From Candidatus Saccharimonadota bacterium (GTDB lineage: Bacteria > Patescibacteriota > Saccharimonadia > Saccharimonadales > Saccharimonadaceae), in NCBI GenBank assembly GCA_001029695.1, contig CP011211.1, positions 570,001 to 602,000 of the forward strand: DNA of 32,000 nucleotides. Reading direction: 5' to 3'. Position numbers and translations under genes: made by a program. Below, in pieces: positions 3,343 to 27,942 of the stretch (its first letter is position 1; each line of letters starts with the position of its first letter). A model generated the notes under the pieces. It was not told the origin of the DNA and did no database searches. It saw only the letters and a program-made list of their open reading frames with translations.

Positions 3343-3492
3343 GTGGCTCCTTTTATTTCTGTATGAATTGAGAGTTCTCGAACTGTACTTTCAAGAATAG
3401 TCCGTATAATTATAGGTACGATTACTCCGGATGTCAATCATGCAGCCCTTTTGTTCCATTCGCACTACGTCGCATGATGCTATGATAGTACT

Positions 3493-4808: not shown

Positions 4809-4889
4809 ATTTTCCTGAAAGTATCGCTTAACTGATATGATATTTTCTCGGTCTGAATAATTATTCTTCATAGTTCAACCAAGATAGAA

Positions 4890-6026: not shown

Positions 6027-6128
6027 TCTAATCTCTCCCTTTTTATTTCCTCAACACCCTATTTTGGACTCAGTGTACCACAACACTACTTATGCTTGTC
6101 AATACTTTTTTACAATAAGCGGTATCTA

Positions 6129-7055: not shown

Positions 7056-7107
7056 GCTTGTGCTTATTGTAGCGTGCTAAGGCCTGTTATAAAAGGGATC
7101 GATGTTA

Positions 7108-8169: not shown

Positions 8170-8225
8170 TATTTTATGTTTCCCTCACGTTATTTTACTT
8201 TTTAAGTATAAGCTGTATTGTACCA

Positions 8226-9302
8226 CTAAAAGCGACCGCTTGCTATGTACGTAATCGTTGTACTATATACACCAGCTCGCAGATCTTTGTGTGAGTTTAC
8301 TATGTAACTTATCGTGAACTTCTTCATCAGGCTAACATTCGGTGAATACGCTACAACATCCCCAGATACGTACTTATACTTGTTCGCAATACCATATTCA
8401 GGCGTAGTTACTGCATTTGCCCAAGTACCCTCTGGGTCCTTACCTACTGCAGGTGCGGTATTTGCAACCAGGTTTAACCCAAATTGATTACTTCCTAGCC
8501 TACTTTCCGTCGGCACAGCTGGCGAGTCGATCACACTCGTACCAGCACTCATCGGTATGCCGTTTGCTGTAATTGCGAAACCGCCACTAGCATTTGTACC
8601 AACAGACATTTGTGACTGAGCAAGGAGTGTTGACTGCGGACTCAACTGCCCCATATCTGTATAATTATTCTCATTGGTCTCAGCACAGTTATCGGCTACT
8701 TCTTCCGCTACGCAAAATATCAACATAGGAGGCACTTGAGTTGCAATAGCGATCCCGTCAGTTACCTGACCCTTCACCGAGCCAAAATCAATCTGTGGCC
8801 CAGTAGCATTGGTTGTCGAGTGACTCCTGAGACGAATTGAAAATGACTTACTAGTATCCGTAGGGTTTACTACACCCTCAAACGTATACGATGACCCACT
8901 TACGCCGACCATTCCTGGAGGTCGGGTCAGGACAATATGGTTGGTGGATTTAGATAAGATCGAGTATCCAACTTCACCAGTCTGGCTAGTAAGCGTTGCA
9001 TTTGAAACATCCAGACCCGCAGGTGTTTCGCAGTCATGGTACGGTATTGGGTCATTACAAAACAATAAATCCACTGAGCCAACCGTTAGTGGGCTCATGT
9101 ATCGAAATGACACAGTATATGACGTTGTCTCACCCGGAGCAGTACTGTTCATATATAGACCTCGCTCTTGAAACCGCATAGCAGCAGACGCCGGTACAGC
9201 AAAAATAAAGACCGCAAGAAGCAAAGAAAGCAATGGCTCTGACCGCAATATATGGTGCCAATTGAAACTATGGGCATGATACCGAAACAACTTATGCTGC
9301 AT
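8226..9302 (-). CDS. Secreted beta-rich surface protein, degenerate WxL-like C-terminal domain (paralog family member 2)
   Basis: 358 aa with a hydrophobic signal region (LLSLLLAVFIFAVPASA). Shared N-terminal module: ERGLYMNS...SYTVSF...FCNDPIPYHDCETP. Also contains LIFCVAEEVADNC. C-terminus: NQFGLNLVANTAP...YKYVSGDVVAY...AGVYSTTITYIASGRF. The exact start is uncertain (unusual His-rich N-terminus, no obvious RBS). Confidence 0.7.
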   Translation of the reverse strand: MQHKLFRYHAHSFNWHHILRSEPLLSLLLAVFIFAVPASAAMRFQERGLYMNSTAPGETTSYTVSFRYMSPLTVGSVDLLFCNDPIPYHDCETPAGLDVSNATLTSQTGEVGYSILSKSTNHIVLTRPPGMVGVSGSSYTFEGVVNPTDTSKSFSIRLRSHSTTNATGPQIDFGSVKGQVTDGIAIATQVPPMLIFCVAEEVADNCAETNENNYTDMGQLSPQSTLLAQSQMSVGTNASGGFAITANGIPMSAGTSVIDSPAVPTESRLGSNQFGLNLVANTAPAVGKDPEGTWANAVTTPEYGIANKYKYVSGDVVAYSPNVSLMKKFTISYIVNSHKDLRAGVYSTTITYIASGRF

Positions 9303-9351
9303 AGCTGTTATTGTAGCAGATGAAGTGCACTACTGATATGCATTGAGGCAT

Positions 9352-9382
9352 AAAATAACCGGCCACTGAGACCGGTTATTTT
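9352..9382 (-). terminator. Intrinsic terminator splitting the surface cluster into two transcription units
   Basis: aaaataaccgg (9352-9362) pairs with ccggttatttt (9372-9382). On the minus strand the hairpin is followed by ttttatg, directly downstream of the 9422 stop. Confidence 0.7.
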
Positions 9383-9421
9383 AGTTGTCACATATTATGC
9401 GACATTCAGTATAAAGCTAGC

Positions 9422-11026
9422 TTAGTACTGAGGAGCTGCAAGATAGTTAATCTTGGTTGTGTATACACCAGCTGGAGTGTCTGCAGCGATATTTGCTACA
9501 TAACGCATCTTCGCTGTTGCACAACTAATGACTTGCTTATTTTGCTGAGCAATCGGCACAGGAACTGTTGAGCTTGATTTCTGGAAAGCAAACTTTGCTG
9601 TACCTGCAGTATCACCACTCGCGAGGCTTCCTTCACCTTCATTGTATTCATCACTAGCTGTTTGAATTGGAGTATCAGCAGGATCAGTAATTAATGTAGT
9701 GAATGGAAAAGCACTAACAGGCTTATAGCCAGCATCTGCATCAAGATTGCTATCCTGACGAGCCTTAAGGGCTGGATCTATAAGATCTGCACCAGTATTT
9801 GAACCAGCATTGACAAACGCAAGGCCAAACTGCTCGGTACCAACCTGGTTTACTGTCTTAGTTGGTCCCATTTCACGAATCTCGTCACCTACGGTATTTG
9901 CAAGTGTATTACCTGAATAGTACACAGTTGCACCACCAGATGAGTTAGATGATAGACGCCAGTACGAATTCACATCGTAAGCTTGACGTGTATCAAGTGA
10001 GTTCTCTGCACTTGGGTTACCAAGGTCTAGACGGTTGTTGTTAACCTGAAGGATAGGGTCGCAGGTACCGTGAGTAACACTTGTTCCTTCGCAGTCAGGA
10101 TTTTCCGGAGCAACTGGACAATTGACAACCTTAGTATCACGATTCCGTGTACCTACTGAGAATGACATCGTCTCAAGAACTTTAGTCGTAATGTGGATTG
10201 AATCAGTCATTACGTTAGCGACCGTAACACCACCATCGATGATATTAGCAGCAGTCACTGCTGAGTCACTTTTATACGTATTGATCTTGACGAAGAATGA
10301 ACCTTCACCTGGATTAGTGATGTGATTCGTCTCTGTTGCCTTGAAAATCACCTTAACCTCTTGGTTAAATGCCGGGGTCACACCACTTACGTGTGTTAAA
10401 GTGATATAGTTCCTCTTACCCGTCAGAGCACTGTTGGTGCTAGGATCAGAGTAGGCAGCATCTTCAACGTTAGTTGCATTCATCGCCCAGCCTGTTGATT
10501 GATCAACACCATTCACCAAAACTACGAAGTCCGTACCTGCTTGAGGACTTGTGTAGTTGACGTCAAGGTCACTCTTTTTGACGCCTGCAGCAATGTTCTC
10601 TGCGTTTGTCTTACGGTCATCTGGGGTTGGAGTCCTAGCATCACCGTCATTGTTACCAGGCGCTTGACACAAGCCAGCAGCTTTTGTGCAGTACTGGAAG
10701 GTTATAGCCTTAACTGGGTCATTTGGTGCTGTACTATCGGAACTCACCTTAAAGCTGAAGGTCTCGCCAGTCTTCATGCCATTAGGACCAGAGCCAGCTG
10801 GCGCATACGTTCCCGTGGCATCAGCACTTGGACTAGCGGTTGAATTGCCCGATCCGTCCGTATCCATAAAGCCTGGAGCCGAACTACTAAGCAGTAGGGA
10901 GCGTTCGGTAAGCGGATTTAATGAATCCGCGAAAACCGGCACCGCTGGAACTACTGCTGCTGCAAAAATAGCAACGGCCGCTCCAAGCGTCACGCTCCGC
11001 TGAGCGATTGATTTGAGTGTATACAT
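9422..11026 (-). CDS. Large secreted beta-rich surface protein, WxL-like C-terminal domain (paralog family member 3)
   Basis: 534 aa. AGGAGA RBS and signal peptide (AAAVVPAVPVFADS). Shared module: ERSLLLSSSAPG...FSFKVSS...YCTKAAGLCQAP. Retains one W-x-L (SYWRLSSNSSGGATVYYSG). C-terminus: EQFGLAFVNAG...DTPAGVYTTKINYLAAPQY. Confidence 0.75.
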   Translation of the reverse strand: MYTLKSIAQRSVTLGAAVAIFAAAVVPAVPVFADSLNPLTERSLLLSSSAPGFMDTDGSGNSTASPSADATGTYAPAGSGPNGMKTGETFSFKVSSDSTAPNDPVKAITFQYCTKAAGLCQAPGNNDGDARTPTPDDRKTNAENIAAGVKKSDLDVNYTSPQAGTDFVVLVNGVDQSTGWAMNATNVEDAAYSDPSTNSALTGKRNYITLTHVSGVTPAFNQEVKVIFKATETNHITNPGEGSFFVKINTYKSDSAVTAANIIDGGVTVANVMTDSIHITTKVLETMSFSVGTRNRDTKVVNCPVAPENPDCEGTSVTHGTCDPILQVNNNRLDLGNPSAENSLDTRQAYDVNSYWRLSSNSSGGATVYYSGNTLANTVGDEIREMGPTKTVNQVGTEQFGLAFVNAGSNTGADLIDPALKARQDSNLDADAGYKPVSAFPFTTLITDPADTPIQTASDEYNEGEGSLASGDTAGTAKFAFQKSSSTVPVPIAQQNKQVISCATAKMRYVANIAADTPAGVYTTKINYLAAPQY

Positions 11027-11171
11027 ATTTTGTATATCTCCTGTTGAATTATATGTTTATATTTTTTGGTCCTTTTTCAAGGGGTACAGGCGCATTTTAC
11101 CATTAGCAGCATAGCAAGCGCAATAGATTTCACAACATTTCACGAAATTTTAAGACTTATCCACACCTAAC

Positions 11172-11912
11172 CTAGAAAATCGGTATAACAACTGCAGAAA
11201 AATCGCCTGTATAATGACCCGCTGGTGTCGAGCTTGAGACATTGACGATCATGCTAATAGTGTAATTAGTCTGCCCAGATTCGCTAAGACTGCGAGCCAC
11301 GACGTCACCACTCACGTACTTAAATAGATTTGGAGTACGGTAAGCTTCTTCGATAACACCGAAGCTTGTCTGACTCGATGGTATTTGGATAGGCCCCAGA
11401 CCAACCTGCGGTGCCGTATTTGGCGCGGCATTGATGGCAAATTGCTCCACACCTGGTGTCGCAGCGGTCGGTGTTTTTGGTGTTTTGAGGGTATGGCCGT
11501 CATATTTTGGCGGATCGCCAACTATCTGTAGCATGTAGCCGTCGCTCAGGTAATTGCGGACCTGCACAGTCATCGTCTTTGTCGAGGTCTTCTCGGTACT
11601 CAGTACACCCAGGTTTGACTCACCAGCGCCAACGATTACTTCAAGAAGTGGCTCGCCGTCAACTACAGGACCAAATGCCGCTGAATTGCTCGCACTTTTA
11701 CTTCTTCCACCCGCCATATCTCCTATCGAAGCTTGCGCACAGTACTGCCCAGAACAACTCTTCAGCGTCGAGCCTGAGCTAAACTGAGATTCGGTAACCT
11801 GGTAGTTTGAGGAGTTGGACGTCTCTGCAAATGCCGTTCCCGCGCCACCACAAACAATTGCGCCCATTAGCACCATCAATTTTAAGTAGCTCCCCAGTCT
11901 CCGTTTTTGCAT
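11172..11912 (-). CDS. Small secreted WxL-like protein (paralog family member 4; C-terminal domain only)
   Basis: 246 aa with a signal peptide (GAGTAFAETS). Contains MTVQVRNYLSDGYMLQIVG, where Y-M-L sits in the place of the first W-x-L. Then EQFAINAAPNTAPQVG...FKYVSGDVVAR...STPAGHYTGDFSAVVIPIF, which aligns with the C-termini of 8226, 9422 and 4890. Confidence 0.7.
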   Translation of the reverse strand: MQKRRLGSYLKLMVLMGAIVCGGAGTAFAETSNSSNYQVTESQFSSGSTLKSCSGQYCAQASIGDMAGGRSKSASNSAAFGPVVDGEPLLEVIVGAGESNLGVLSTEKTSTKTMTVQVRNYLSDGYMLQIVGDPPKYDGHTLKTPKTPTAATPGVEQFAINAAPNTAPQVGLGPIQIPSSQTSFGVIEEAYRTPNLFKYVSGDVVARSLSESGQTNYTISMIVNVSSSTPAGHYTGDFSAVVIPIF

Positions 11913-12019: not shown

Positions 12020-13036
12020 ATGGAACCTGACAAAAAAAATACCCCGGCCGCAGAGGGCCAATCACCAGAAGAAGAGCAGCAAGCGCCAGCCGATGCTCTC
12101 AGTCGCACGCCCGATGATCTCGAGCAGGAGCAAGCAGAACAAAAAGCAGCTTCAACCGCGAACTCTAGCACTCCAGCCGAGAAAAAAGTATCTCCTATAA
12201 AGAGATTCTTCAAGAAAATAAATGTCTATCTTCTATTGTTTGTTTTGCTAGTCGTCATCGCAGGAGCCATCACTGCCGTAAACTACCTCAATAGCCAGAA
12301 GACTGCACCTGAACCAAATATAGCAAATCAAAGCCTCACCGAAGAAGCACTAAAACAACTCGCAAATACCGATGCAACTGTCGGTGCAGCGTCACAAACA
12401 CTCAACATCCAAGGCAACACGATCATCGCAGGACAGACATTGATGCGGGGAAATCTTAACGTTGCAGGTAACTTCCAAAGTGGCGGCAGTATCCAGGGAC
12501 CGAGCCTCACTATCTCCGGCAACACCAACCTTGGGTCAACCCAAATCAATAACTTACAAGTAGCCACAAACGCGGCCGTGCAAGGATCGACAACTTTACG
12601 TGATTTAAGTGTTTCTGGTACGTCTACTTTTAGTGGAGCAATCACCGCTTCGCAGATCACTGCCTCCCGGCTCGTACTCAGCGGCAATGCCGTCTTGCAG
12701 GTTCCAAATCATATCAGCTTTACCGGCCCTACACCTGGCCGCGGTGCTATTGGCGCCGCACTTGGAAGTGGTGGAACAGCATCGATTAGTGGCTCTGACA
12801 CAGCCGGCACAGTCAGCATCAACACAGGCAACAATACGGCCGTAGGTTGTTTCGTACGAATTAACTTCGCCCAAGCTTTCACAGCACAGCCACGAGTTAT
12901 TATTAGCCCTATAGGTCCTGGCGCTGGAAAAACAGAATATTATGTCGATCGAAACACAAGCGGCTTTAGTATCTGTGCGAGTAGCCCTGCACCGGCAAAT
13001 CAAGCATTTGCATTCGACTACTTTATCGCTGGATAA
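12020..13036 (+). CDS. Single-pass membrane protein: acidic disordered N-terminus, beta-helix-like repeats, lectin-like C-terminal domain
   Basis: 338 aa. The N-terminal 60 aa are rich in E/Q/P/A. TM: INVYLLLFVLLVVIAGAITAV. Imperfect repeats follow: GNLNVAGNFQSGGSIQGPSLTISGNTNLGSTQINNLQVATNAAVQGSTTLRDLSVSGTSTFSG. The C-terminus (VRINFAQAFTAQPRVIISP...SGFSICA...FAFDYFIAG) resembles the F..F...P.V...GF.i...w.A.G pattern of H-type lectin-like domains; that assignment is tentative. Confidence 0.6.
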   Translation: MEPDKKNTPAAEGQSPEEEQQAPADALSRTPDDLEQEQAEQKAASTANSSTPAEKKVSPIKRFFKKINVYLLLFVLLVVIAGAITAVNYLNSQKTAPEPNIANQSLTEEALKQLANTDATVGAASQTLNIQGNTIIAGQTLMRGNLNVAGNFQSGGSIQGPSLTISGNTNLGSTQINNLQVATNAAVQGSTTLRDLSVSGTSTFSGAITASQITASRLVLSGNAVLQVPNHISFTGPTPGRGAIGAALGSGGTASISGSDTAGTVSINTGNNTAVGCFVRINFAQAFTAQPRVIISPIGPGAGKTEYYVDRNTSGFSICASSPAPANQAFAFDYFIAG

Positions 13037-13054
13037 ACTTACTACTAAGTAACT

Positions 13055-13365
13055 CTAGACGTCGACAAACACGACGACGCGATCCGCTTTTACGTGCATG
13101 AGTGCACGATGAATCTTGATGGTTTTTTGACTACCATCTACTGGCTTCACGACAAGACTACACGGCACTAACATACAAAGAAAATTATGATGACGAGGCA
13201 AGATATCAAAAGGACCCGTCTCATTAACCGCGCTCACGCTATACGCGTCACCCTCAAAGTAGACTTGAAATGGCGCATACACCTTAACGGCCATCGTTGG
13301 CTTGCCACCTGATTGCGGTACCGTCTGACTAGAATCAGCTGGCGCAGTGGGAGTTTCGTCGGCCA

Positions 13366-13366
<1 letters not shown>
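13055..13366 (-). CDS. atpC: F1 ATPase epsilon subunit, N-terminal beta-sandwich only
   Basis: KVYAPFQVYFEGDAYSVSAVNETGPFDILPRHHNFLCMLVPCSLVV...HRALMHVKADRVVVFVDV matches the epsilon N-terminal domain (GelGILpgH motif region). The GTG at 13366 overlaps the beta stop (TAGTG). An alternative start is the ATG at 13297 (MAVKVY), preceded by AGGTGG. There is no C-terminal helical hairpin. Confidence 0.7.
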
Positions 13367-15664
<2,298 letters not shown>

Positions 15665-15668
<4 letters not shown>

Positions 15669-17218
15669 GCCTTCGACTCCTCGCTACTAGCTTTTTCAGC
15701 TTCGACAGCTGCAGCAGCCTCGTCGGCTTGGCGTTTCTTTTCGATTTCGGCTTTTGCTTGCTTTTCAATTGCAGCTTTTTTAACCGGATCAATACTCATA
15801 ACCTCAGCCTTCAACGCTGCACATAACTCATCAAAATTACCGTTCATATCCTTGTCTTCTTTGAACTTCGCTGCATAGTCGCGCACTTTCACTTTGAGCT
15901 TCGGAATATCGATAACCTCCTCTGGTGAACTATCGAGTACGATACCCATGATAAATTGCTGCTCAGCAAAACTAAAGATCTCACCAACTGCTTGGTTCAT
16001 AAGCTTGAAGAGCACTTTACCTTTATCGTAGTCGGCTTGCGCCGCTGGACTCAATTCGGTACCAAAGTGAGCATACTCTTCAGCAGTACGATACCCTGCA
16101 AGCGTAAGGTTAAGTTTATCGGCATAGCCCTTTTGACGTTTGTTTTGACCGACACCACCAACACGCGTCACGGAAAGAGCGGTGCTAACAGCAGGGCGCA
16201 TTGTATCTTTAAAGATCTGCCCATCGAGAATCCACTGACCGTCTGTGATCGACATGATGTTTGTCGGAAGATACGCAGTGATGTCACCACCTGGTGCATA
16301 CACGATTGGGATAAGCGTCTGGCTGGCATGATTTGATTCGGTTTTACCGCCACGCTCAAGGAGACTAGAGTGTGTGTAGAACATATCACCAGGATATGAG
16401 TCGCGCCCCGGCGACACTCCGGCGATAAGCGAAATCTCTCGATATGCCTGAGCGTGCGCCGTGAGATCATCGTAGATAACCAATGTATCCATATTGCACT
16501 TATGCCAAAAATACTCACCATGCGCCGCACCAACATATGGCACTAAATAGGTAAGAATTAACGACTCAAACGAGTTACTTACTACAACGATAGCTTTTTT
16601 GAGGGCATCATTCTTTTCAAGATTATTCACAAGCTCAGCCACGTCACGCTGACGCTTAGCGATAAGTACATAGATAACAGTAACATCGGTATTCTTTTGA
16701 TTGATCGCAACTTGCGCAGCCAATGCAGTCTTACCTACTTTGCTATCTCCGAGCATTGCCATACGCTGACCACGCGCGAGCGAGTACTCAAGGTCGAGAA
16801 TTGTCACACCTGTCTCTACGGGTGTATCTAATAGTTCACGCTCATACAGGGCTGGCGCATTATGAAAAACATCCCATTCCTGATCAGCAACAATCTCGCC
16901 TTTGCCGTCGATAGGTTCACCAAATACATTCACTACACGGCCAATAAAGTTTTTTCCCACAGGCGTCATGATGTCACGTGACTCAATCACACATACCGCG
17001 CCAATATGAAGAGGTGTTGGATCTAGTTTCATTACTACAACATGATCTTCAAATACTTCGTGTACATAGCCACGAGTACCATCGTCGAATCGTACTGTAG
17101 CGTGAACATTTGTAGGTTGCAGCCCTTTTATACTCACCATGAACGAGTCAATACCAATCACTTCACCGACTGGATTTCCTGCATCAACCAGTTTTTGGAA
17201 TATCTTATTTATGGCCAC
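15665..17218 (-). CDS. atpA: F1 ATPase alpha subunit (divergent P-loop, K/E/A-rich C-terminal tail)
   Basis: GQRMAMLGDSKVGKTALAAQVAINQ (P-loop GDSKVGKT, versus the usual GDRQTGKT). VIYDDLTAHAQAYREISL. SPGRDSYPGDMFYTHSSLLER. LPTNIMSITDGQWIL...RPAVSTALSVTRVGG. GTG start at 17218. 517 aa, with an extra tail KAAIEKQAKAEIEKKRQADEAAAAVEAEKASSEESKA. Confidence 0.92.
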
Positions 17219-17723
17219 GAAGCGACTCCAATTCTTTTACAAGTAGGTCATGCTGGCTATCGAGTTGCGCCCTCAAACTTAAGTCATGTACTTTATTTGG
17301 GGTTCGCATATACACTCCAGCGACCAAGGCTGGCTGAAGCCCCGCCGCAATAACTACTTGCGGATGTATAGTGGTGCGCAACCACTGAGCAAGCTGGCCT
17401 AAACTTTCACGATCCGCCGGAACAGCAAACGTCATGTGGATAACCGGGAGACTATCTTTTAAAAGACGTAGTTGCTTGATTAGTTCACTTCTCTGTGCGC
17501 TAGTGCCGAGACTGATGTCGTTGCAATCTAAAAACGCAGCCAACTGATCAGAGAAAACTGGCGAATCCGCTACTGATGCACCTGTCTTTGCCCGGACGGC
17601 CATTGTTGTCAGCTCGTTATCAACTCTTTCAAGTTCACGGACAAGACGCGACACATCAACCTTTGTCACGATAGTCGCTGGAAGTGAAAAGCTTGCATAC
17701 ATCTTAGTTTGCGAGTCGCTCAT
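17205..17723 (-). CDS. atpH: F1 ATPase delta (OSCP)-like subunit, divergent N-terminal half
   Basis: The C-terminal half (VIHMTFAVPADRESLGQLAQWL...VVIAAGLQPALVAGVYMRTPNKVHDLSLRAQLD) aligns with the delta C-domain (V.v.sA..L......vdpsliGGv.vr.gd.v.D.Sv...L). The gene's position between the stalk-position gene and alpha also supports the call. I could not align the N-terminal half to canonical delta. Confidence 0.65.
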   Translation of the reverse strand: MSDSQTKMYASFSLPATIVTKVDVSRLVRELERVDNELTTMAVRAKTGASVADSPVFSDQLAAFLDCNDISLGTSAQRSELIKQLRLLKDSLPVIHMTFAVPADRESLGQLAQWLRTTIHPQVVIAAGLQPALVAGVYMRTPNKVHDLSLRAQLDSQHDLLVKELESLRGHK

Positions 17724-18535
17724 AATTTCATATCATCCATGATTTCTTGCTTGTTCGCTTCCATTTGTTGGATAATTGACGGAAGCTGAGCCTTCATGTC
17801 GTACTGATCACCCAAAGCGCCTAGTAGGTAGTGCTCTATGACCTGCGCCATATTCCCCTCAAATGCCTCAACGAGCATAGTCTCTTGGTCCGCTACATTC
17901 TTTTGCAGCGTCACACTTAGCTGTTCGTGCTGCTTCTGTAGTGCTTCCGCACTCTCTGTCACAAGCTTCAAAGCCGACTCGTGAGCCTCTTTCATTGCAG
18001 AAATGCGAGCGCTATTTTCTTCAAATACCGTCGAAAGCATCGCATCCTGACTAGCCACATTTTTCTGCAAGGTCTGCCCAAGTTCATGATGCCGTTCCTG
18101 AAGAGCATGTGCACTTTCCATAACAAGATGAAGTGCTGTGTCTTGAGTTTCTTTCATTGCTTTGCTATTTTGCGCAAACTGGTCGTATAGAGATGCGCTC
18201 AGTTGCTTGTGCTGCTCTTCAAGCTCTGCGGCACTGTGACTCATTGAACGAAGCGCCATGTCCTGTGCGTCTTTTAAGACTTTGCTATTTTCGGCAATCT
18301 GCTTATCGAGCTGTTCGGCAATGTGGTCCTTAAGTTCGGCGCTCGCTTTTGCGATAGTCGCGTTTAGATCTTGCTTAAAAGTTGCGGCGTTGTCATCGAT
18401 TACTTTTTCAAAATGAGACTGTCCTCGTTTGCGGAGATCCTGAAAATACCCATCAAAAAAGCGCTGCACACCATCAGTTGTCTCGTCAACCACTGATTCT
18501 TTGTGCGAATGCTGCTTTTTTTGAAATAATCCCAT
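17720..18535 (-). CDS. Soluble coiled-coil protein with three internal repeats, in the position of the b (atpF) subunit but with no TM helix
   Basis: 271 aa. AAGGTGG RBS, with an ATGA overlap onto atpH. There is no hydrophobic segment anywhere. The sequence is rich in heptad-like Q/E/K/A/L. Three about 40-54-aa repeats begin NSKVLKDAQDMAL..., NSKAMKETQDTAL... and NSARISAMKEAHESAL.... The b-subunit assignment is positional only. Confidence 0.6.
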   Translation of the reverse strand: MGLFQKKQHSHKESVVDETTDGVQRFFDGYFQDLRKRGQSHFEKVIDDNAATFKQDLNATIAKASAELKDHIAEQLDKQIAENSKVLKDAQDMALRSMSHSAAELEEQHKQLSASLYDQFAQNSKAMKETQDTALHLVMESAHALQERHHELGQTLQKNVASQDAMLSTVFEENSARISAMKEAHESALKLVTESAEALQKQHEQLSVTLQKNVADQETMLVEAFEGNMAQVIEHYLLGALGDQYDMKAQLPSIIQQMEANKQEIMDDMKL

Positions 18536-18563
18536 ATTCGTTAACCCACCTTAATCTCTAGCA

Positions 18564-19406
18564 TCATAGCTTCAGTAGTAAATATACCGCAAATAGGCCA
18601 ATAATTAAAATCAATATACTCGTCAAGATAATCTCGAGTAGTGCCCGAAAAATTGACTTCTTCGTCATTGGGTTGCGGCCAATCGAAATCACACCACTGC
18701 GCACCCCGGAATACAATACGGCAATCGCCGCAATAAGACTAACCGCTGTAATTGCCATACTCAAATAAATACGAATAGGGCTCACTTCTTTCTCAGCAAT
18801 CGCCTGTCCAATTCGTTCGAGAATTTCAGGAACTTGGACTTTAGTGCTCTTCTCATTAGGGTTACGTTTGATGTCAATCGTCACGGCAACCTGCCCAAGC
18901 GTAACCGTCTGATTAGTCTTACCTTCCGTATCTTTGAGCGTCGTTGTTCCAAGTGTTACGCCCTTGCCATCAAAGGAGCCAGCGGCACGGCCAAACACAG
19001 TTTTCTCCTCGGTACCCGCTTTCATAGCTACGCCGTTCACAGACGACAGCGTCACATAGTCACCTGTCGCTATCGGCCCACCTTGAGTGCTCACCAGAAC
19101 GTTGTACGTACCCGAGACGGCTACGAATGCTTCATTCTCTAGCCCGCCATTGCTAAGCGTCAATGATAGCTGATTTCGGTCAACTGTCACACCAAACATA
19201 TTCTGGAGCTCTGACTGGGTAGCAATTTTTACACGATCAGAATCTTTGCCTGCCATCTGGACAATCGTCCCAGTGTCGAGTGGTGTATCTGACGCATAGC
19301 CCTGCACGCTACCGCCGCCATAGCTCGCCGCAAGAGCTGGAAGAGAGACAGCTGAAGCAACACCGATGATAACGGCAATGGAAACGATAATTCTCGGTAA
19401 TTTCAC
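18564..19406 (-). CDS. Signal peptide + about 180-aa extracytoplasmic domain + C-terminal 2-TM hairpin with a c-subunit-like GRNP loop; first gene of the ATPase operon
   Basis: 280 aa with a GTG start. Signal peptide MKLPRIIVSIAVIIGVASAVSLPALA/AS. A beta-rich Gly/Thr/Val domain follows. Then IRIYLSMAITAVSLIAAIAVLYSGVRSGVISIGRNPMTKKSIFRALLEIILTSILILIIGLFAVYLLLKL, which has a helix-loop-helix layout and an RNP loop like F-type c subunits (compare ...GYARNPSLKQQLF...). It lacks the GxGxGxG motif and the canonical mid-helix carboxylate. Confidence 0.6.
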   Translation of the reverse strand: MKLPRIIVSIAVIIGVASAVSLPALAASYGGGSVQGYASDTPLDTGTIVQMAGKDSDRVKIATQSELQNMFGVTVDRNQLSLTLSNGGLENEAFVAVSGTYNVLVSTQGGPIATGDYVTLSSVNGVAMKAGTEEKTVFGRAAGSFDGKGVTLGTTTLKDTEGKTNQTVTLGQVAVTIDIKRNPNEKSTKVQVPEILERIGQAIAEKEVSPIRIYLSMAITAVSLIAAIAVLYSGVRSGVISIGRNPMTKKSIFRALLEIILTSILILIIGLFAVYLLLKL

Positions 19407-19449
19407 TTGTTTGTTTAGACTCCATGCGCTCTGTCGTACGCTTGGGATT

Positions 19450-19487
19450 ATTATACCATAACCACCATGACTTTTTTGTCAACAATA
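19450..19487 (-). promoter_or_regulatory. Candidate promoter of the ATPase operon (extended -10)
   Basis: The minus strand reads TTGACA-(21 nt)-TGGTATAAT. The -10 TATAAT is at 19455-19450 and is preceded by TGG. The -35-like TTGACA is too far away for a standard spacer, so the call rests on the extended -10 only. Confidence 0.3.
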
Positions 19488-19549
19488 AGACTTATTTCAA
19501 AGCTCATTTACATAACTCAAAAAAACACCATTTAACACCTTGAAAAACG

Positions 19550-19578
19550 TTGTCACAAGGTGCCGCTTATGCTACAAT
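19550..19578 (+). promoter_or_regulatory. Sigma70-type promoter for the 1037-aa surface protein gene
   Basis: TTGTCA (19550-19555), 17-nt spacer, TACAAT (19573-19578). It lies about 80 nt upstream of the ATG at 19659, in a 252-bp AT-rich divergent intergenic region. Confidence 0.5.
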
Positions 19579-19658
19579 AATTCCAAGCTTTTTGATGGCA
19601 CCACACGTCTAAGTGAAATAAACATATTGCTCGCATCTAACAGATGTAGAAATAAAAC

Positions 19659-22600
19659 ATGAATATGTGGTGCTACCTTCCTGATAGTGTTAAAACTGTT
19701 CGTCCACTACGACTAGTAGTGGTAGTTTTGTTGTTAGTAGCATTATCTACAACGCTTTTTCTTACATCTATCGCGCGCGCGGTGCCTAGTACAAACAAAA
19801 CTATCAATTTCCAGGGGCGACTCCAGACCTCTGCGGGCGCTGTCGTTGCCGATGGCCACTACAACATCCAGTTCAAGATCTACCAGGACGGCACAGGAAC
19901 AACCGTGGGCAATCCTGGCGGCTCATTGAAATGGACAGAAAGCCATGTCAACAACGGTGGAGCAAATGGCGTAGAAGTCAGAAACGGCTACTTCTCTGTT
20001 AACCTTGGCTCGGTTACTCCATTCGGAACGAGTGTCGACTGGGATCAAGATGCGCTATTCCTATCGATGAATGTCGCTGGAAATAGCGCTACCTGTACAA
20101 CATTCGGCTCTACACCTTGTGGAGCCGATGGTGAAATGCTTCCGATGAAGCGCATTACCGCTACTCCTTACGCCATAAACGCCGGCGCAGTAAATGGCAA
20201 AACTGCAGACAACTTCATCCAGCTTGCCCAAGGAGTACAAACAGATGCAAGCACAAATACAAGCAGTATCCACATCAACAAAACAGGCACCGGCAACCTA
20301 ATCCAACTCCAAAATGCAGGAAATAACGTCTTCAGCGTTACAAACTCCGGTGATATCGAGTTTGGCAGTGGTGGAAACCGCGCCATCTACGTCGGTGGGG
20401 CACCCGAAAATACCACTGGCAATAACCTCACCCTGTTTGCCGGCTATGGGGGAAGTGGCTCAGGCAGTCAAGGTGGCGGACTCTTCCTACAGGGAGGAAG
20501 CGCAGGCGGTGATAATGGAGAGGGTGGAAGTGTTGCAATCACCGGTGGTGTCGGTACTGGAACAGGCAAAAATGGTAGCGTCTACATCGGCGCAAGCGAC
20601 ACCGACGCAGTCCAGATTGGTAGTACAAATCTCACGAGCGGCACTCAGACGATCAATATCGGCAACAACAATGCAGCAGGCGGCACAACAAACATCACTA
20701 TCGGTAGCGGCCCCGGCGCGACAGGCGGCTCGACGAATATTCAGTCAAAAGACGAAACATCCATCACGACAAATGGCACGCGACGCGCAACATTTGCAGG
20801 AGATTCAAATACGCTCTACGTTGGCAATGCCGATGGAAGTGGAAATGCCACAACCGCTAATGGATTCACAATCCAGGGGACGAGCAGTACTGGTAGTAAT
20901 ACGCAAGGTGGTGCACTTACTGTACAGGCCGGTTCAGCCACCAACGGCAATGCCAACGGCGGCAATCTTACACTGAGTGGCGGTTCCGGAAGTGGCTCAG
21001 GTGCAACCGGGCTTGTCGTCATCAATACGCCAACCTTCCAAACAACAACAAACGATACGAACTGCTATACCGGTAGTGCTTTAGTTTCTAGCAGCTGTAC
21101 GTTTACGAGTACAAGCGTCAATAGTTCGTCAGTACTCATTGCGGGATTCACGGCGGCTGGCCAAGTCGCAACCCTCCCTGACCCAGCTATCACTACCGCT
21201 GGCCGTATCATCTATGTCACGGCAGCAAACAGCTCAAAAGAATTTACTCTACGAGCAAACGCTGGTGCTGGTATCGGCGTGGAGCAAAACGTCACCCTAC
21301 GTCAAAATACTACTGCCACAATGATTTGGAATGGATCTGATTGGACTGTAGCAGGGGGATCCAACTCGACAAGCCTTCAAAACACCTACGATAACACCCC
21401 GCAAAATGCAGGCAGTGCCGATATTGTACTTGGAGGCGGTTCAGGAAACGACGGTTTAACTATTCGCGACAATAACACCAATCCTGTTAGCGGCCCTCTT
21501 CTTGACGTGCAAGGCTCAAACACGACATCGCTCTTCTCTGTTAATAGTGATGTCAATGAACTTGCGAGCAACCCAGGAGCAGAAACAGCTGGAGCAACAT
21601 CAACAACCTTCCCGGCAAATACATGGGACGTATCAGGTGCTGCCACCGTCACTCGTCATACTACAGCTGGAAACTACATCGCGTCTGGTCAAGCCTCGAC
21701 TAAGGTTGTCGCTACGGGCGAGATTTCAGGTGCCACAAACACCCTAAAGTCCGCGCTTATACCTGGAAAAACATACACCGTATCAATGTCACTACGCCTA
21801 GAAAGTGGCCCTGGTAACGGATTTGGTATCATCTATGCAGCTGATGGAGTGACCCCTACCGAGAACTGTGTTATCGACGTCACTTTGTCGACAAGTGAAT
21901 GGAAAAAGGTTAGCTGCTCATTCCAAGCCCCAGCATCTGGTATTACCAGCCAAAATGCGATAGCAATCGGTAAAACCACAGAAGCTGCACAAACATTCTA
22001 TGTCGACAACGTCAGTGTCAAGCTAGGCGGCAGCGACAGCACTGGCGCTACTGGAAACGTCCAGGTAGGCGGCGGTGCAAATGGCGGTTCGCCAACTCTA
22101 TTCACACTTGATAAAAACTCATCAGCTCCAGCTGGTTCCAATCACGATGCGCTTCTTGGTAGCATGTACTACGACACTACACTCGGTAAGGTGCAGTGCT
22201 ACGAGTCAGAAGGATGGGGAGCATGTGGTGCAAGTCCTGACAATTTCATCACAATTAGCCCAGAATACTCAGGGGCAGTGATGCATGGTGACGGAATAGG
22301 AACCATAGCAACAGACATATGCTCTGACTCACTCAATATAAATGACGGCAGTAGCGCACAGCCAACCATCTGTGGAAGCAATGAGACCTATAACTTCTAC
22401 AAATGGACCACACCGGAAGCTTCAACTCAATCACGTGCCATCTTCGTAACGTATCAACTCCCTGCTACATTTAAAGATTTCATCCCTGGCTCAACTTCAC
22501 TCATGGGGCGCACTAATAGTTCAGACTCTGCCGTCACATACCAGATCTATCGCAACAACAGTAGTACAGGATTAACCGCTTGCGGCTCCACCGTATCCGT

Positions 22601-22772
22601 CTCGACAGGCTCACAGTCATCGTGGCAAAAAGCAGGAGCCACTGGGTCGGCTGATCCATCGACGTGCGGCTTCGCTGCCGGAGATAGCATTGTTATCAGA
22701 GTTAACCTCAATGCATCAAACAACGCCAACGCCTATGCAAGCAACCTCAACTTCACCTTCAGCAACCACTAA
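19659..22772 (+). CDS. Large (1037 aa) secreted or anchored Gly/Thr/Asn/Ser-rich surface protein with a CBM4/9-like jelly-roll segment
   Basis: N-terminal signal anchor LRLVVVVLLLVALSTTLFLTSIARA. Gly-rich repeat zone at about 20380-21020 (GYGGSGSGSQGGGLFLQGGSAGGDNGEGGSVAITGG...GGNLTLSGGSGSGSGATG), reminiscent of tail-fibre or beta-helix adhesins. The segment at about 21570-22026 (NPGAE...WDVSGAATV...GKTYTVSMSLRLESG...EWKKVSCSFQAP...FYVDNVSVK) looks like a carbohydrate-binding-module fold. C-terminal Cys-containing domain: GSMYYDTTLGKVQCYESEGWGACG. Confidence 0.8.
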   Translation: MNMWCYLPDSVKTVRPLRLVVVVLLLVALSTTLFLTSIARAVPSTNKTINFQGRLQTSAGAVVADGHYNIQFKIYQDGTGTTVGNPGGSLKWTESHVNNGGANGVEVRNGYFSVNLGSVTPFGTSVDWDQDALFLSMNVAGNSATCTTFGSTPCGADGEMLPMKRITATPYAINAGAVNGKTADNFIQLAQGVQTDASTNTSSIHINKTGTGNLIQLQNAGNNVFSVTNSGDIEFGSGGNRAIYVGGAPENTTGNNLTLFAGYGGSGSGSQGGGLFLQGGSAGGDNGEGGSVAITGGVGTGTGKNGSVYIGASDTDAVQIGSTNLTSGTQTINIGNNNAAGGTTNITIGSGPGATGGSTNIQSKDETSITTNGTRRATFAGDSNTLYVGNADGSGNATTANGFTIQGTSSTGSNTQGGALTVQAGSATNGNANGGNLTLSGGSGSGSGATGLVVINTPTFQTTTNDTNCYTGSALVSSSCTFTSTSVNSSSVLIAGFTAAGQVATLPDPAITTAGRIIYVTAANSSKEFTLRANAGAGIGVEQNVTLRQNTTATMIWNGSDWTVAGGSNSTSLQNTYDNTPQNAGSADIVLGGGSGNDGLTIRDNNTNPVSGPLLDVQGSNTTSLFSVNSDVNELASNPGAETAGATSTTFPANTWDVSGAATVTRHTTAGNYIASGQASTKVVATGEISGATNTLKSALIPGKTYTVSMSLRLESGPGNGFGIIYAADGVTPTENCVIDVTLSTSEWKKVSCSFQAPASGITSQNAIAIGKTTEAAQTFYVDNVSVKLGGSDSTGATGNVQVGGGANGGSPTLFTLDKNSSAPAGSNHDALLGSMYYDTTLGKVQCYESEGWGACGASPDNFITISPEYSGAVMHGDGIGTIATDICSDSLNINDGSSAQPTICGSNETYNFYKWTTPEASTQSRAIFVTYQLPATFKDFIPGSTSLMGRTNSSDSAVTYQIYRNNSSTGLTACGSTVSVSTGSQSSWQKAGATGSADPSTCGFAAGDSIVIRVNLNASNNANAYASNLNFTFSNH

Positions 22773-22878
22773 TCTCTGTTATGCTAAAATAGCAAGAGTA
22801 ACTAAACGCTGAGTGTTTAGCGAGGAATATGGATCAAGCAGATAGGACAGAGAGAGCCTATCCACCCGATTTATCGCA

Positions 22879-23595
22879 ATGGAGTTCAAAAAGCCACATC
22901 GATACAAACAAGGTCAATCAAAAAACACGCCGAAACAGCGTGTCGGTTCGCCATACGAAAACGCAGTACCCCCCGCGACAGCCACTCATGCTAAAAGCTC
23001 CACAAATTCAAAAACAATCAATATAAAGATTAGTTTTGACTCATTGTCGAAAACTGCGTTATTTGCGCGAATCCGCCGCCTTAATCTCACAAAACGAACA
23101 GTAGTTGTCAGTGCTAGTATATTTATACTAGTAAGTTGCTTAGTCGCTGGGGTATTCATCTATCACCATACCACTACGCGAAGCTCCGCCGACATCACCA
23201 ACCCAAACGAAGTTGTCAAAAATCTCGACTATGGAACTGTTCTACCAGATAACAAATCTATTGATGAGCTTGGCGGGTGGCGTCGCGTTAGTCCCGCCAA
23301 GAGCGATCCAGTATTTGCCTATAGTGACAAGATTGGCACTGCCACTATCACCGTTAGTCAGCAGCCATTGCCAGACTCTTTCAAAGGTAACGTGGATAGC
23401 CAAGTTGCTGAAGTTGCCAAAAAATTCAGCGCCACCACTAAAATCGACGTCGATCACACAAAAGTCTATATTGGTACATCTACAAAAGGTCCGCAATCTG
23501 TAATATTTACAAAAAACAATCTACTCATCCTTATCAAGTCTCAAGTGAAAATCGATGATAAAGACTGGGCTTCGTACGCAAAGTCACTTCGCTAA
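22879..23595 (+). CDS. Single-pass membrane protein, hypothetical (basic N-terminus, extracytoplasmic alpha/beta domain)
   Basis: 238 aa. TM: VVVSASIFILVSCLVAGVFIY. The C-terminal domain (AYSDKIGTATITVSQQPLP...VIFTKNNLLILIKS...DWASYAKSL) loosely resembles DUF4367-type domains; this is tentative. The start codon is uncertain because there is no RBS. Confidence 0.55.
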   Translation: MEFKKPHRYKQGQSKNTPKQRVGSPYENAVPPATATHAKSSTNSKTINIKISFDSLSKTALFARIRRLNLTKRTVVVSASIFILVSCLVAGVFIYHHTTTRSSADITNPNEVVKNLDYGTVLPDNKSIDELGGWRRVSPAKSDPVFAYSDKIGTATITVSQQPLPDSFKGNVDSQVAEVAKKFSATTKIDVDHTKVYIGTSTKGPQSVIFTKNNLLILIKSQVKIDDKDWASYAKSLR

Positions 23596-23626
23596 CACCC
23601 TCACTAGAGTCTCACGAAGCAATACT

Positions 23627-24220
23627 CTATGGCTTCTTGTATTTCTCAATCGACTGGGCGACTTTACCATCAGTCTTAAGATTCTCATAGAAAAGCACCT
23701 GGTCTTTTGAAAGGATCATTTCATCTTCTGGACCATGAATCTCATCACCAAGCTTAATTAGCTGAACATTACCTTGATCATTTGAAGTCTGCTGAGGATT
23801 TTTTGAGTCTTTTGCCTCTTCTGTAGATTGCTGCGACTGAAGATAATAAATGTCAGTGAGCTTCATGTATTCGTTATTAAAAGACTGAAGTTTACCAAAG
23901 TACACCTGACCATTCGTAAAAAATACCGCCTGATACTTACTACTATCGATAGCGGTCGCAACCGTCTGTGTCTTTGACCATGCGAACCATCCAACGGCAC
24001 CCAAGATAATGAGAATAACCGCGACAATAATAGGGAGAACAAATCGCTTTACCGACCTCTCCTCGCGCATGGCATGACGAGGCGTCACCGCTTGATGTAC
24101 GGTCTTTGGCGTCTCATTCACTGATCGTGGCTCTTCTGCCTGCTGACGATGTGTCGGCTCTGGCCTACTCGCGACCCTTCTGTCTGTCGGTCGCGGCACA
24201 CGAAACGGTCCCCCATCCAT
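23627..24220 (-). CDS. Single-pass membrane protein, hypothetical
   Basis: 197 aa. Basic/Pro-rich N-terminus, TM FVLPIIVAVILIILGAVGWFAW, then YQAVFFTNGQVYFGKLQSFNNEYMKLTDIYYLQ. GGAG RBS, with a candidate promoter upstream. Confidence 0.6.
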   Translation of the reverse strand: MDGGPFRVPRPTDRRVASRPEPTHRQQAEEPRSVNETPKTVHQAVTPRHAMREERSVKRFVLPIIVAVILIILGAVGWFAWSKTQTVATAIDSSKYQAVFFTNGQVYFGKLQSFNNEYMKLTDIYYLQSQQSTEEAKDSKNPQQTSNDQGNVQLIKLGDEIHGPEDEMILSKDQVLFYENLKTDGKVAQSIEKYKKP

Positions 24221-24576: not shown

Positions 24577-25281
24577 ATGAAAATCAAATCAAGCCTTACG
24601 GCAACAGCCGTTGCTTTTTCGCTAGTGTTCTTTTTTGGACCTACGACTCACGCCAAGGAAGCTACGAGTACCGAAAAAGAAGACAATACCCCTGTAAAAG
24701 TAACTATCCAGGTAGGCGATACGCTTTCGAGTATAGCCGACACACACAATACAACGTACGTACGTATATTTAACGCAAACGACTTCCTAGTAAATCCAGA
24801 CATCATCAACGCAGGCGACAGTGTTCGCATCCCCACGGCAGAAGAAACTCTTCCGGATCGTTATAGCGAAAGAGTCGTACCGCAAGTAGCGCCAACTACA
24901 GCATCACAATCATCAACCATAGCGCAGACACCTTCAGTATCTGCCGCACCTATTCAGCCGAGCTCACCTACCTACGCTTCAAACGCAGGCAATACTTATT
25001 ACCGTGGTTATTGCACCTGGTACGCAAAAGAACGTCGACCTGATCTTCCAAACATGCTTGGAAATGGTGGACAATGGGTGGCAAATGCTGCGGCGCGTGG
25101 ATATTCGACCGGCTCAACCCCTCGGCCCGGCGCAATTGCTGAGATGCCAGGGCACGTAGCGGTTGTTGAGTCAGTCAATGGAGATGGTACCATCGTTATT
25201 TCAGAGATGAACGGACCTGCCGGATTCGGGGTTGTCGGCACACGTACCGATGCAGCAAGCAAGTATCGATATATCTATTAG
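24577..25281 (+). CDS. Secreted peptidoglycan hydrolase, LysM + CHAP domains
   Basis: AAGGAGA RBS and a signal peptide (AFSLVFFFGPTTHA). LysM: VTIQVGDTLSSIADTHNTTYVRIFNANDFLVNPDIINAGDSVRIP. Ser/Pro/Ala linker. CHAP: catalytic Cys in YYRGYCTWYAKERRP and His in GHVAVVESVNGDGTIVISEMN. Confidence 0.85.
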   Translation: MKIKSSLTATAVAFSLVFFFGPTTHAKEATSTEKEDNTPVKVTIQVGDTLSSIADTHNTTYVRIFNANDFLVNPDIINAGDSVRIPTAEETLPDRYSERVVPQVAPTTASQSSTIAQTPSVSAAPIQPSSPTYASNAGNTYYRGYCTWYAKERRPDLPNMLGNGGQWVANAAARGYSTGSTPRPGAIAEMPGHVAVVESVNGDGTIVISEMNGPAGFGVVGTRTDAASKYRYIY

Positions 25282-27342: not shown

Positions 27343-27942
27343 TCAAACATGAACTGCTCTTACTCGTTGAACGTGCTTTACATGTTCAATAGGCTTCTTG
27401 ATGTTAAATTGACAAATAACCTCTATCATCTTTGACGCTTCTTCGTAACTATACACTTTTTCGCCATACCTAAAAACCGACTCGATCATATCATTGACTG
27501 AACCAACATCCTCATATCCGTTAATAAAGAATTTCTCAGCCGACGGAAAGACGACGATATTAACAATCGGAGCCTTTAATCTCTCACCGATTAGCCCTCT
27601 TACAGTTCTAATGTGGCTATTATTTTGCTCTACTGGGTTAGGAGTAAGGCGAAAGCTATTTCTGAACAAAATTTGCTTAAAAAGCCTGTGGGCCTTTGAG
27701 CCAGATATCCATCCTTTGTGAGATTTGGTTTCAATACAAAATATTCCGTATATAGATATAATTAAATGATCTATCTGGGACGTGCGGAATTGTCCGTCAT
27801 TAGGTAAAAGCAGATCAGAAATAACTGCATACTGGCGGTGAGGAAGGCTCTTCAAAAGTTGCTGCGTAACATACCGCTCATCTGCGTAATACTTGCTACG
27901 CTTTTTCTTAAAATTATAGATTGAACCTTTTAGACTATACAT
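27343..27942 (-). CDS. NERD (nuclease-related domain) protein
   Basis: 199 aa. SQIDHLIISIYGIFCIETKSHKGWISGS matches the NERD core (iDhlvi...gifviEtKn..G.i.g). A perfect consensus promoter lies upstream. Confidence 0.8.
   Translation of the reverse strand: MYSLKGSIYNFKKKRSKYYADERYVTQQLLKSLPHRQYAVISDLLLPNDGQFRTSQIDHLIISIYGIFCIETKSHKGWISGSKAHRLFKQILFRNSFRLTPNPVEQNNSHIRTVRGLIGERLKAPIVNIVVFPSAEKFFINGYEDVGSVNDMIESVFRYGEKVYSYEEASKMIEVICQFNIKKPIEHVKHVQRVRAVHV

Follow-up and report, generated by a model that had tools for sequence, protein, structure and literature searches.

What might an F1-like ATPase do with a membrane protein that resembles subunit c in its helical hairpin, has lost the ion-binding carboxylate of that subunit and carries a large external domain? 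The question is raised by the first gene of an ATPase operon of a Candidatus Saccharimonadota bacterium, located on contig CP011211.1 (assembly GCA_001029695.1) in a stretch of 32,000 nucleotides (positions 570,001 to 602,000 of the forward strand), the whole of which is called the window here. Rotary F-ATPases are ion-coupled energy converters, and a sequence-only reading of the window had suggested that this gene encodes a secreted ectodomain fused to a c-like hairpin which, if it oligomerised into a ring that docks gamma and epsilon, would give a rotor carrying an external domain. The follow-up analysis described here indicates that the hairpin is quite probably descended from an F-type subunit c of the lineage represented by Chloroflexi and the candidate phyla radiation (CPR). 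The wider proposition, that the entire protein serves as a c-derived and ion-blind membrane subunit of a non-respiratory F1-like ATPase with its output at the cell surface, is evenly balanced between true and false. The gene and the parts of its product are the following, with the basis of each given last.

18564..19406, minus strand: whole gene of the hairpin protein with ectodomain, probably c-derived (280 amino acids and stop codon); open reading frame (ORF), large family, AlphaFold2 model with a predicted local distance difference test (pLDDT) score of 91
19326..19406, minus strand: predicted signal peptide, residues 1-27, MKLPRIIVSIAVIIGVASAVSLPALA followed by AS; sequence and a model helix at residues 3-21
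18864..19325, minus strand: extracytoplasmic beta-rich domain with a phage capsid cement/decoration fold, residues 28-181; Foldseek against PDB and BFVD, Pfam
18780..18863, minus strand: linker with a short amphipathic helix, residues 182-209 (helix 194-204); AlphaFold2 secondary structure
18567..18779, minus strand: C-terminal two-helix membrane hairpin, subunit-c-like, residues 210-280; model, Foldseek, hhalign and permutation controls
18669..18680, minus strand: codons of the turn G243-R244-N245-P246 at the cytoplasmic end of the hairpin; sequence, aligned to the RNP of AIGRNPE

The gene starts with a GTG codon and its 280-residue product has the build that the sequence-only reading gave it, namely a signal peptide, an ectodomain and a C-terminal hairpin, the final 72 residues being identical to those quoted there. 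Cleavage of the signal peptide is placed putatively between LPALA and AS on account of the AxA motif. An AlphaFold2 model made from 129 diverse sequences (pLDDT 91, and the one used; an input of 37 close homologues gave pLDDT 54) pairs helices 210-244 and 246-279 as a hairpin, in agreement with the two membrane helices and short polar RNP loop first recognised from the sequence alone. It also confirms that a beta-rich domain has been added ahead of the hairpin, which in the model spans residues 30-181 or thereabouts (about 150 amino acids, rich in Gly, Thr and Val). The positive-inside rule fits the loop region, where R236, R244, K249, K250 and R254 are found, and the model together with the signal peptide predicts that the hairpin has the topology of subunit c, with its N-terminus outside, its loop inside and its C-terminus outside. 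Pfam and NCBIfam scans of the window protein itself return no family match (NCBIfam none at E <= 0.01).

The protein belongs to a large family. There are 1830 relatives in a 90%-clustered collection, of which the few that are named come from Saccharibacteria/Saccharimonadales and are called hypothetical, and when 1.84 billion representatives at 50% identity are searched with a profile, 2320 family proteins pass E <= 0.001 and 209 pass E <= 1e-30. The majority of the matches listed are 255-310 amino acids long and align end to end. Conservation was followed in a set of 129 diverse family members that are 27-85% identical to the window protein. Invariant among them are G125, R244, N245 and P246, with G243 present in 99%, and the polar loop of subunit c, R-(Q/N)-P, appears to have its counterpart in the RNP found in 129 of 129 members. 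Mean identity to the window protein is highest in the loop region (54%), lower in the ectodomain (35%) and lowest in the signal peptide (15%). Full-text searches of the literature found no account of this protein or of a subunit c joined to an external domain.

The likeness of the hairpin to subunit c is seen first in its predicted structure. The first hairpin-covering matches in a Foldseek search of the PDB are F-type c subunits, including that of Chloroflexus (9itt_I; 67 columns, root-mean-square deviation (rmsd) 1.2 A, target-normalised template modelling (TM) score 0.89) and a mammalian one (6j54_K; rmsd 1.6 A). At the sequence level, the family profile finds two matches at E <= 10 among all PDB sequences, one of which is the Chloroflexus c subunit (E 0.71) in an alignment that lays siGRNPLsk of the family on AIGRNPEIE; phmmer and a shallow hairpin profile gave no match to PDB sequences. 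When the 129 members are scanned against the 18,950 models of NCBIfam, the model matched by most of them is the F0F1 subunit C PRK07159 (15/129, best E 0.0043), and a hairpin taken alone aligns with the c model PRK06876 from residue 6 to residue 71 on profile positions 9-72 of 80 (E 0.0098), although these c models are reached at 15-16 bits only, against cut-offs of 71-122.

Comparison of profiles with profiles makes the relationship more specific. A set of 94 c subunits of the Chloroflexi/CPR type, which carry the loop AIGRNPE and include one from Candidatus Wolfebacteria, was compared with the 129 hairpins using hhalign, giving a probability of 88.4% (P 2.8e-6, 71 columns); a second run on subsets of the hairpins and the Chloroflexi/CPR c subunits gave 80.7% (P 1.3e-5). 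As a control the columns of the c alignment were shuffled within helix 1, the loop and helix 2. Permuting all three segments lowers the score to 10.6 +/- 2.4, and leaving the loop intact while permuting the helices gives 22.4 +/- 2.6 with a maximum of 32.6; the observed score of 33.5 is reached by 0/100 permutations in either case. Because the loop-intact null lies at 22.4 and the observed score at 33.5, the loop carries most of the signal and the order of residues in the helices adds to it. An unrelated family of two membrane helices, which the sequence-only reading had named as an outcome that would speak against a relation to ATP-synt_C, does not fit the hairpin any better.

F-type ATP synthases of the CPR are reported to share ancestry with those of Chloroflexi, to which they are sister (PMC10656485), and this shared ancestry fits the observation that the hairpin resembles the c subunit of its own lineage best. 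Like the Chloroflexi/CPR subunit c, the target has a two-helix hairpin of equal length with N-out, loop-in and C-out topology, an RNP turn that follows [AS]-I-G, a conserved G-L about 24 residues past the proline, and a gene that lies ahead of those for b, delta, alpha, gamma, beta and epsilon. It differs from subunit c in its additional N-terminal signal peptide and 150-residue external domain, and in belonging to an operon without a. The resemblance to the loop of c claimed at the outset is upheld in this form by Foldseek and by profile probabilities of 81-88%; the part of the claim that does not stand is the assignment of the loop to the ARNPS type of mitochondria and alphaproteobacteria, the closest type being AIGRNPE of Chloroflexi/CPR.

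What the hairpin has not kept is the ion site. In a gap-free alignment the c motif GAIGPGLGIGI faces SLIAAIAVLYS in the target, so that helix 1 is without a GxGxGxG motif, as the sequence-only reading had it. The essential glutamate of c (FTEAL) faces Ile264, at +18 after the proline, where the family has Ile or Leu, and no carboxylate is left in mid-membrane; the same reading had rightly placed an Ile at this position and a Glu at +12. The +12 position, Glu258 in the window protein, is situated roughly one turn in from the cytoplasmic face and not in mid-membrane. Gln is the commonest residue there (63% of the 129 members), ahead of Glu (11%), Lys (9%) and Arg (6%), some close relatives having Gln or Gly, and Glu at +12 is rejected as an alternative ion site for this lack of conservation, above all for the prevalence of Gln. 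Small residues occupy one face of each helix (216, 223, 227, 234, 238 and 241; 248, 255, 263, 270 and 273). Because the glycine motif and the carboxylate are lost and there is no subunit a, ordinary ion coupling is excluded.

The remaining genes of the operon and its promoter-like site are listed below.

19455..19482, minus strand: promoter-like site upstream of the first operon gene; TTGACA, 16 nt, TATGGT, 10/12 consensus matches
17720..18535, minus strand: second gene, 271-amino-acid coiled-coil protein, b-like, no membrane helix; position
17205..17723, minus strand: delta (OSCP)-like subunit; PF00213, E 1.5e-4
15665..17218, minus strand: F1-like alpha subunit; PF00006, E 1e-63
14802..15668, minus strand: F1-like gamma subunit; PF00231, E 5e-26
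13366..14805, minus strand: F1-like beta subunit; PF00006, E 4e-66
13055..13366, minus strand: epsilon-like subunit, beta-sandwich domain only, 103 amino acids; PF02823, E 9e-12

The order of genes is hairpin protein, coiled-coil protein, delta, alpha, gamma, beta and epsilon, and the genes that follow the first one lie close together or overlap. With delta, alpha, gamma, beta and epsilon following the coiled-coil gene, the hairpin gene is indeed the first of an ATPase operon, as had been proposed. The promoter-like site lies 49 nt upstream of the GTG and is the joint best in the region 12900-19700, where it is a consensus match only and where the count of such sites is not above that in shuffles. 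The canonical bacterial order is that of the atpIBEFHAGDC operon, in which atpE precedes b, delta, alpha, gamma, beta and epsilon. The beta-sandwich domain of epsilon is the part that is seated on the c-ring in F-ATPases.

The product of the second gene has no match to a family or to the PDB, and it is b-like by position and architecture only. In 6/81 loci (L076, L078, L082, L083, L085 at 3020-3658, and L086) its homologue has 210-212 amino acids with an N-terminal membrane helix and a long helical region, and the C-terminal part of these proteins is homologous to the 271-residue protein of the window, which has no membrane helix; proteins of the latter kind begin with a conserved MGLFQxKQ. 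PF00430, the family of the b subunit, is unmatched even by an orthologue that bears a membrane helix. In most of the clade the anchorage of the stalk in the membrane appears to have been lost. If the second gene is read as b', the operon becomes c'-b'-delta-alpha-gamma-beta-epsilon, which is the canonical order minus a, with the target in the atpE slot.

This arrangement is highly conserved. A scan of one genome per species with a 30-sequence alignment as query found a relative in 486 genomes, and the best 80 loci were examined; these are almost wholly from metagenome-assembled genomes (MAGs) of Saccharibacteria, with TM7i (a complete genome) and a Nanosynbacter among them. The second-gene homologue directly follows the target in 78/78 loci that have >= 0.9 kb downstream, and the full colinear operon from target to epsilon is present in 50/51 Saccharibacteria loci that have >= 6.3 kb downstream. 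In the sole exception (L048) the operon stops about 60 codons into alpha (12218-12400) with no run of N, which could be due to a rearrangement or to a chimeric assembly. Even a member with an identity as low as 31% (P0268) heads the same operon, and another (P0235) is followed by genes of matching sizes. No gene for a subunit c or an a-like subunit is found in the operon, either in the window or in any of the related loci examined, and a search of every ORF in 85 loci with purpose-built c-subunit hidden Markov models (HMMs) finds no canonical c subunit in the flanks. The sequence-only reading had reasoned that a family found mostly away from ATPase genes would count against it; because of the synteny in 78/78 and 50/51 loci, with only two distant members standing apart, this is not the case, and adjacency to F1 genes holds in essentially all loci examined. 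Three loci with a typical Saccharibacteria operon at 67-78% identity (L015, L017 and L035) come from MAGs labelled Chloroflexi, Dongiaceae and Parcubacteria, labels which are probably errors of binning or labelling.

The F1 subunits themselves set this ATPase apart from a respiratory enzyme. For alpha the best NCBIfam equivalog gives 378 bits against a cut-off of 554 and the mycoplasma MMOB1660 model gives 328 bits; for beta, atpD gives 436 bits against 463 and the MSC_0618_beta model 400 bits. Gamma (TIGR01146, 78 bits against 194), delta (TIGR01145, 25 bits against 57.5) and epsilon (TIGR01216, 33 bits against 67) also fall short, so that all five subunits lie under their equivalog cut-offs and score much as they do with the mycoplasma F1-like models. 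Published gene counts (PMC12592800, Table S5) give a single copy each of a, b and c for complete Saccharimonadales genomes and two copies of alpha, beta and gamma for S. aalborgensis, GWC2_44_17 and M. amalyticus; in bins of the order CAILAD01, alpha, beta, gamma and epsilon are present and a, b and c are absent, and TM7x and RAAC3 are listed with a single alpha/beta set. In the non-respiratory F-type ATPase of Omnitrophota, beta groups with Saccharimonadia and alpha with mycoplasma Types 2 and 3 (Seymour et al. 2023, PMC10066038). Because of the scores below cut-off, the lack of a and c, the published gene counts and the Saccharimonadia beta grouping, the operon, viewed within 32 kb of its genome, is most likely a second, non-respiratory F1-like ATPase that lacks subunit a.

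Two of these subunits also have unusual extras for F1 subunits, a Lys/Glu/Ala-rich tail at the C-terminus of alpha and an acidic Ser/Glu/Asp-rich tail at the C-terminus of beta. The P-loop of alpha reads GDSKVGKT, the usual one in F1 alpha being GDRQTGKT.

The ectodomain has relatives of a different kind. Over residues 30-190 or so, Foldseek matches it in the PDB to the cement protein of phage Pam3 (8hdt_G, E 1.9e-5) and further to those of Borrelia phage BB1, Sf11, HFTV1 and TW1 and to a C-terminal fragment of phi29 gp12. The Pam3, BB1 and Sf11 matches, at E 1.9e-5 to 1e-3 and target-normalised TM scores of 0.45-0.6, identify a cement fold. Matches in BFVD are to 'preneck appendage' and DUF2190 proteins, at E values as low as 1.2e-9, and weak Pfam matches among the 129 members are to PF23982 (37 members), PF22758 (9) and PF09956 (5), with a best E of 8.5e-6. 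In phages, cement or decoration domains form oligomers and act as clamps on the surface of a protein. While the ectodomain shares its fold with phage cement proteins (Pam3 gp6, BB1, Sf11, TW1) and with the C-terminal domain of phi29 gp12, it differs from them in being cellular and fused to a membrane hairpin, at an identity of 10-24%. In the NCBIfam scan, weak matches were also obtained to fumarate reductase flavoprotein subunit (10 of 129 members) and L-aspartate oxidase (7), with a best E of 3e-4; these are probably local similarities of the beta-rich ectodomain.

A course of events that would account for such a protein is proposed as follows. The operon would represent a c-b-delta-alpha-gamma-beta-epsilon copy from which subunit a has been lost, and within it the copy of c would have lost the glycine packing motif and the carboxylate, would have gained a signal peptide and an external domain of cement fold, and would have retained the topology and RNP loop of c. 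In ATP synthases the RNP loop of c is the docking place of gamma/epsilon and not of b. Several copies of the hairpin may associate in the membrane so that their RNP loops seat the foot of gamma/epsilon, and the formation of such an oligomeric ring with docking of gamma/epsilon to the hairpins has slightly less than an even chance of being right. Hydrolysis of ATP by alpha3beta3 would then turn or twist gamma/epsilon and, there being no proton path, the torque would pass through the hairpins to the surface domains instead of driving the pumping of ions. That the output at the cell surface is mechanical is a tentative suggestion, and its most explicit form, an ion-free drive shaft derived from the c-ring that spins or twists a crown of cement-like external domains, is somewhat unlikely.

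Several observations weigh against this proposal or against the descent on which it builds. The loop motif supplies roughly two thirds (22.4 of 33.5) of the local profile score, and with classical c subunits the contribution of the helices is marginal, since 6/150 permutations reach the observed score. None of the 129 members matches PF00137 at E <= 1, and HMMs of classical and cyanobacterial c subunits fail to pick up the hairpin. An hhalign comparison with eight classical c subunits (E. coli, bovine, yeast, Ilyobacter, chloroplast, PS3, M. tuberculosis and B. pseudofirmus) gives P 0.006 and a probability of 3-6%, or 1.5% for the set of close hairpins; a cyanobacteria-biased set of 64 c sequences does no better than the classical ones, and the signal rose only with the Chloroflexi/CPR type. 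The probabilities of 81-88% obtained there are suggestive and not conclusive, scores of this kind being inflated by membrane helices. The structural model is that of a monomer, and the combination of a variable helix 1 with a single face of small residues fits packing within the hairpin, so that packing into a ring, which for subunit c comprises 8-17 copies, is neither shown nor excluded. Movement of the ectodomain, and any contact that it may make, are suppositions. In the clade of the window, and in 75/81 loci, the b-like protein is without a membrane helix that could hold the stator. Finally, two members are found apart from the ATPase genes: P0259 (L084, 9001-9849), whose loop is aberrant (ALSRNPM) and after which come a 103-amino-acid ORF and a K1-lyase_C protein, and P0177 (L088), which is followed by a gene on the opposite strand on a 1.5-kb contig.

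Another role for the hairpin would be that of an anchor of the stator. Here it merely tethers the F1-like head through delta and the coiled coil that has no membrane helix, as b and a do, while gamma/epsilon act elsewhere or only switch conformation, and descent from c becomes optional. In 75/81 loci no membrane helix is present in the b-like protein, so that the stalk must be held by something, and the hairpin protein is the only membrane protein that the operon of this clade encodes; a peripheral-stalk role has also been proposed for the analogous Protein 5 of mycoplasmas (PMC3369863, PMC12994834). The conserved element of the hairpin is nevertheless the RNP turn, which in F-ATPases contacts gamma/epsilon and not b, the hairpin protein is kept where the b-like protein has a membrane helix of its own, and epsilon retains exactly the beta-sandwich domain that is seated on the c-ring. 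An anchor of this kind is unlikely.

It is less credible still that the hairpin is a look-alike that arose by convergence, in which case the product would be a surface protein on an ordinary two-helix anchor, linked to the ATPase through co-transcription only. Helical hairpins are geometrically simple, PF00137 finds no match, the profile signal lies mostly in a short motif and some members are not beside ATPase genes. Set against this, the order of residues in the helices still lifts the score above 100/100 permutations when the loop is fixed, and the c-subunit models are the most recurrent match among the 18,950 of NCBIfam. The similarity is strongest to the c of its own lineage, the CPR being reported as sister to Chloroflexi in their F-ATPases (PMC10656485), the gene occupies the atpE slot ahead of the b-like gene, and the synteny is near-absolute.

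The published gene counts bear on the idea, which is very improbable, that the protein is an accessory or assembly factor of an ordinary F1Fo, the F1 of the operon working with a, b and c encoded elsewhere. Complete Saccharimonadales genomes do have a, b and c, and TM7x and RAAC3 are listed with one alpha/beta set (PMC12592800). However, other genomes have two sets of alpha, beta and gamma, and CAILAD01 has F1 genes without a, b and c (PMC12592800). The F1 subunits of the operon are moreover divergent, lying under all equivalog cut-offs, and a ring chaperone needs no external domain of 150 residues.

That the hairpin is still an ion-coupled rotor, working through the polar residue at +12 and an unrecognised channel partner, is barely tenable: Glu258 does lie inside helix 2 with Arg/Lys236 at like depth on helix 1, but the lack of conservation at +12, with Gln or Gly in close relatives, nearly refutes it, the position is about one turn from the cytoplasmic face, and no a-like gene is found in the operon of any locus.

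The preferred reading, that of a c-derived, ion-blind membrane subunit of a non-respiratory F1-like ATPase, can be set beside systems described elsewhere. F1-like ATPases without Fo in mycoplasmas and a non-respiratory F-type ATPase in Omnitrophota/Saccharimonadia are already known. Among the mycoplasma proteins, Protein 5 (MSC_0620/MMCAP2_0577 of Type 3, 87 kDa; MMOB1650 of the Type 2 gliding cluster, 127 kDa) begins with a signal peptide, continues with a large domain and closes, at its very C-terminus, with a pair of membrane helices connected by a short loop, and its authors have proposed a peripheral-stalk role for it (PMC3369863, PMC12994834). The Type 3 F1-like X0 ATPase is needed for antibody cleavage by MIB-MIP (PMC12994834). 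In mycoplasmas the F1 motor has thus been turned to gliding and to the release of cleaved antibodies. The membrane parts of these mycoplasma complexes resemble nothing, so that the route of force across the membrane is still unknown (PMC3369863, PMC12994834). As compared by published description, the target and Protein 5 have the same architecture, each within an F1-like cluster that lacks a and c, and for both a part is envisaged in coupling an ATP-driven F1-like motor to structures of the cell surface. Protein 5 is 3-4 times larger than the target, and similarity in sequence was not detected, no NCBIfam model of MSC_0620 type being among the top families for the 129 members (E <= 1). The clusters differ as well, in that the mycoplasma ones have a protein with 12 transmembrane helices and no b or delta, whereas the Saccharibacteria operon keeps the b-like and delta genes and has no such protein. 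The non-respiratory ATPase of Omnitrophota/Saccharimonadia (PMC10066038) probably belongs to the same F1-like lineage, but the description by Seymour et al. (PMC10066038) treats alpha and beta only and includes no membrane subunit. Its genes in Omnitrophota lie beside those of type IV pili (PMC10066038), whereas no pilus gene is among the ORFs checked around the Saccharibacteria operon in the window.

The operon sits in a block of genes for secreted and surface proteins (3813-11912 on the minus strand, 12020-13036 on the plus strand, and 19659-24220) which is syntenic across Saccharibacteria. It includes a divergent 1037-amino-acid protein, with CBM_4_9 in its orthologues; upstream are proteins of 197 and 238 amino acids, and downstream are a membrane-anchored repeat protein of 338 amino acids, with a weak match to bactofilin, and proteins of 246, 534 and 358 amino acids. 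The block also holds proteins of the WxL-interacting-protein-like and PKD kinds. The 1037-, 238-, 197-, 338-, 246-, 534- and 358-residue proteins are present in 41-57 of 43-61 loci, and the WxL-interacting-like and PKD proteins have no match across loci, perhaps because they lie beyond the flanks fetched. This synteny may reflect a functional tie to the ATPase or just the kinship of close relatives. Elsewhere in the window are genes for a secreted LysM-CHAP peptidoglycan hydrolase (24577-25281, plus strand), a NERD nuclease-related protein (27343-27942, minus strand) and a 328-amino-acid ORF whose match is limited to the C-terminal AAA_2 and D2-small part of ClpB (30937-31923, minus strand).

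On the preferred reading the operon represents a readable intermediate between an ion pump and a surface motor, in which the membrane subunit can still be recognised. A role would be assigned to a widespread 'hypothetical protein' of the CPR, with 2320 representatives and occurrence in 486 species-level genomes, and the model is a concrete one, with the foot of gamma/epsilon placed on the RNP loops and torque handed to the surface domain, in a system that is present in culturable and genetically tractable organisms. If the drive shaft were real, these epibiotic bacteria would use it to drive some activity at their surface, for instance moving on the host surface, attaching to it or remodelling it, and the drive shaft would offer a principle of coupling for the F1-like X0 motors of mycoplasmas, which serve in gliding and in the MIB-MIP system.

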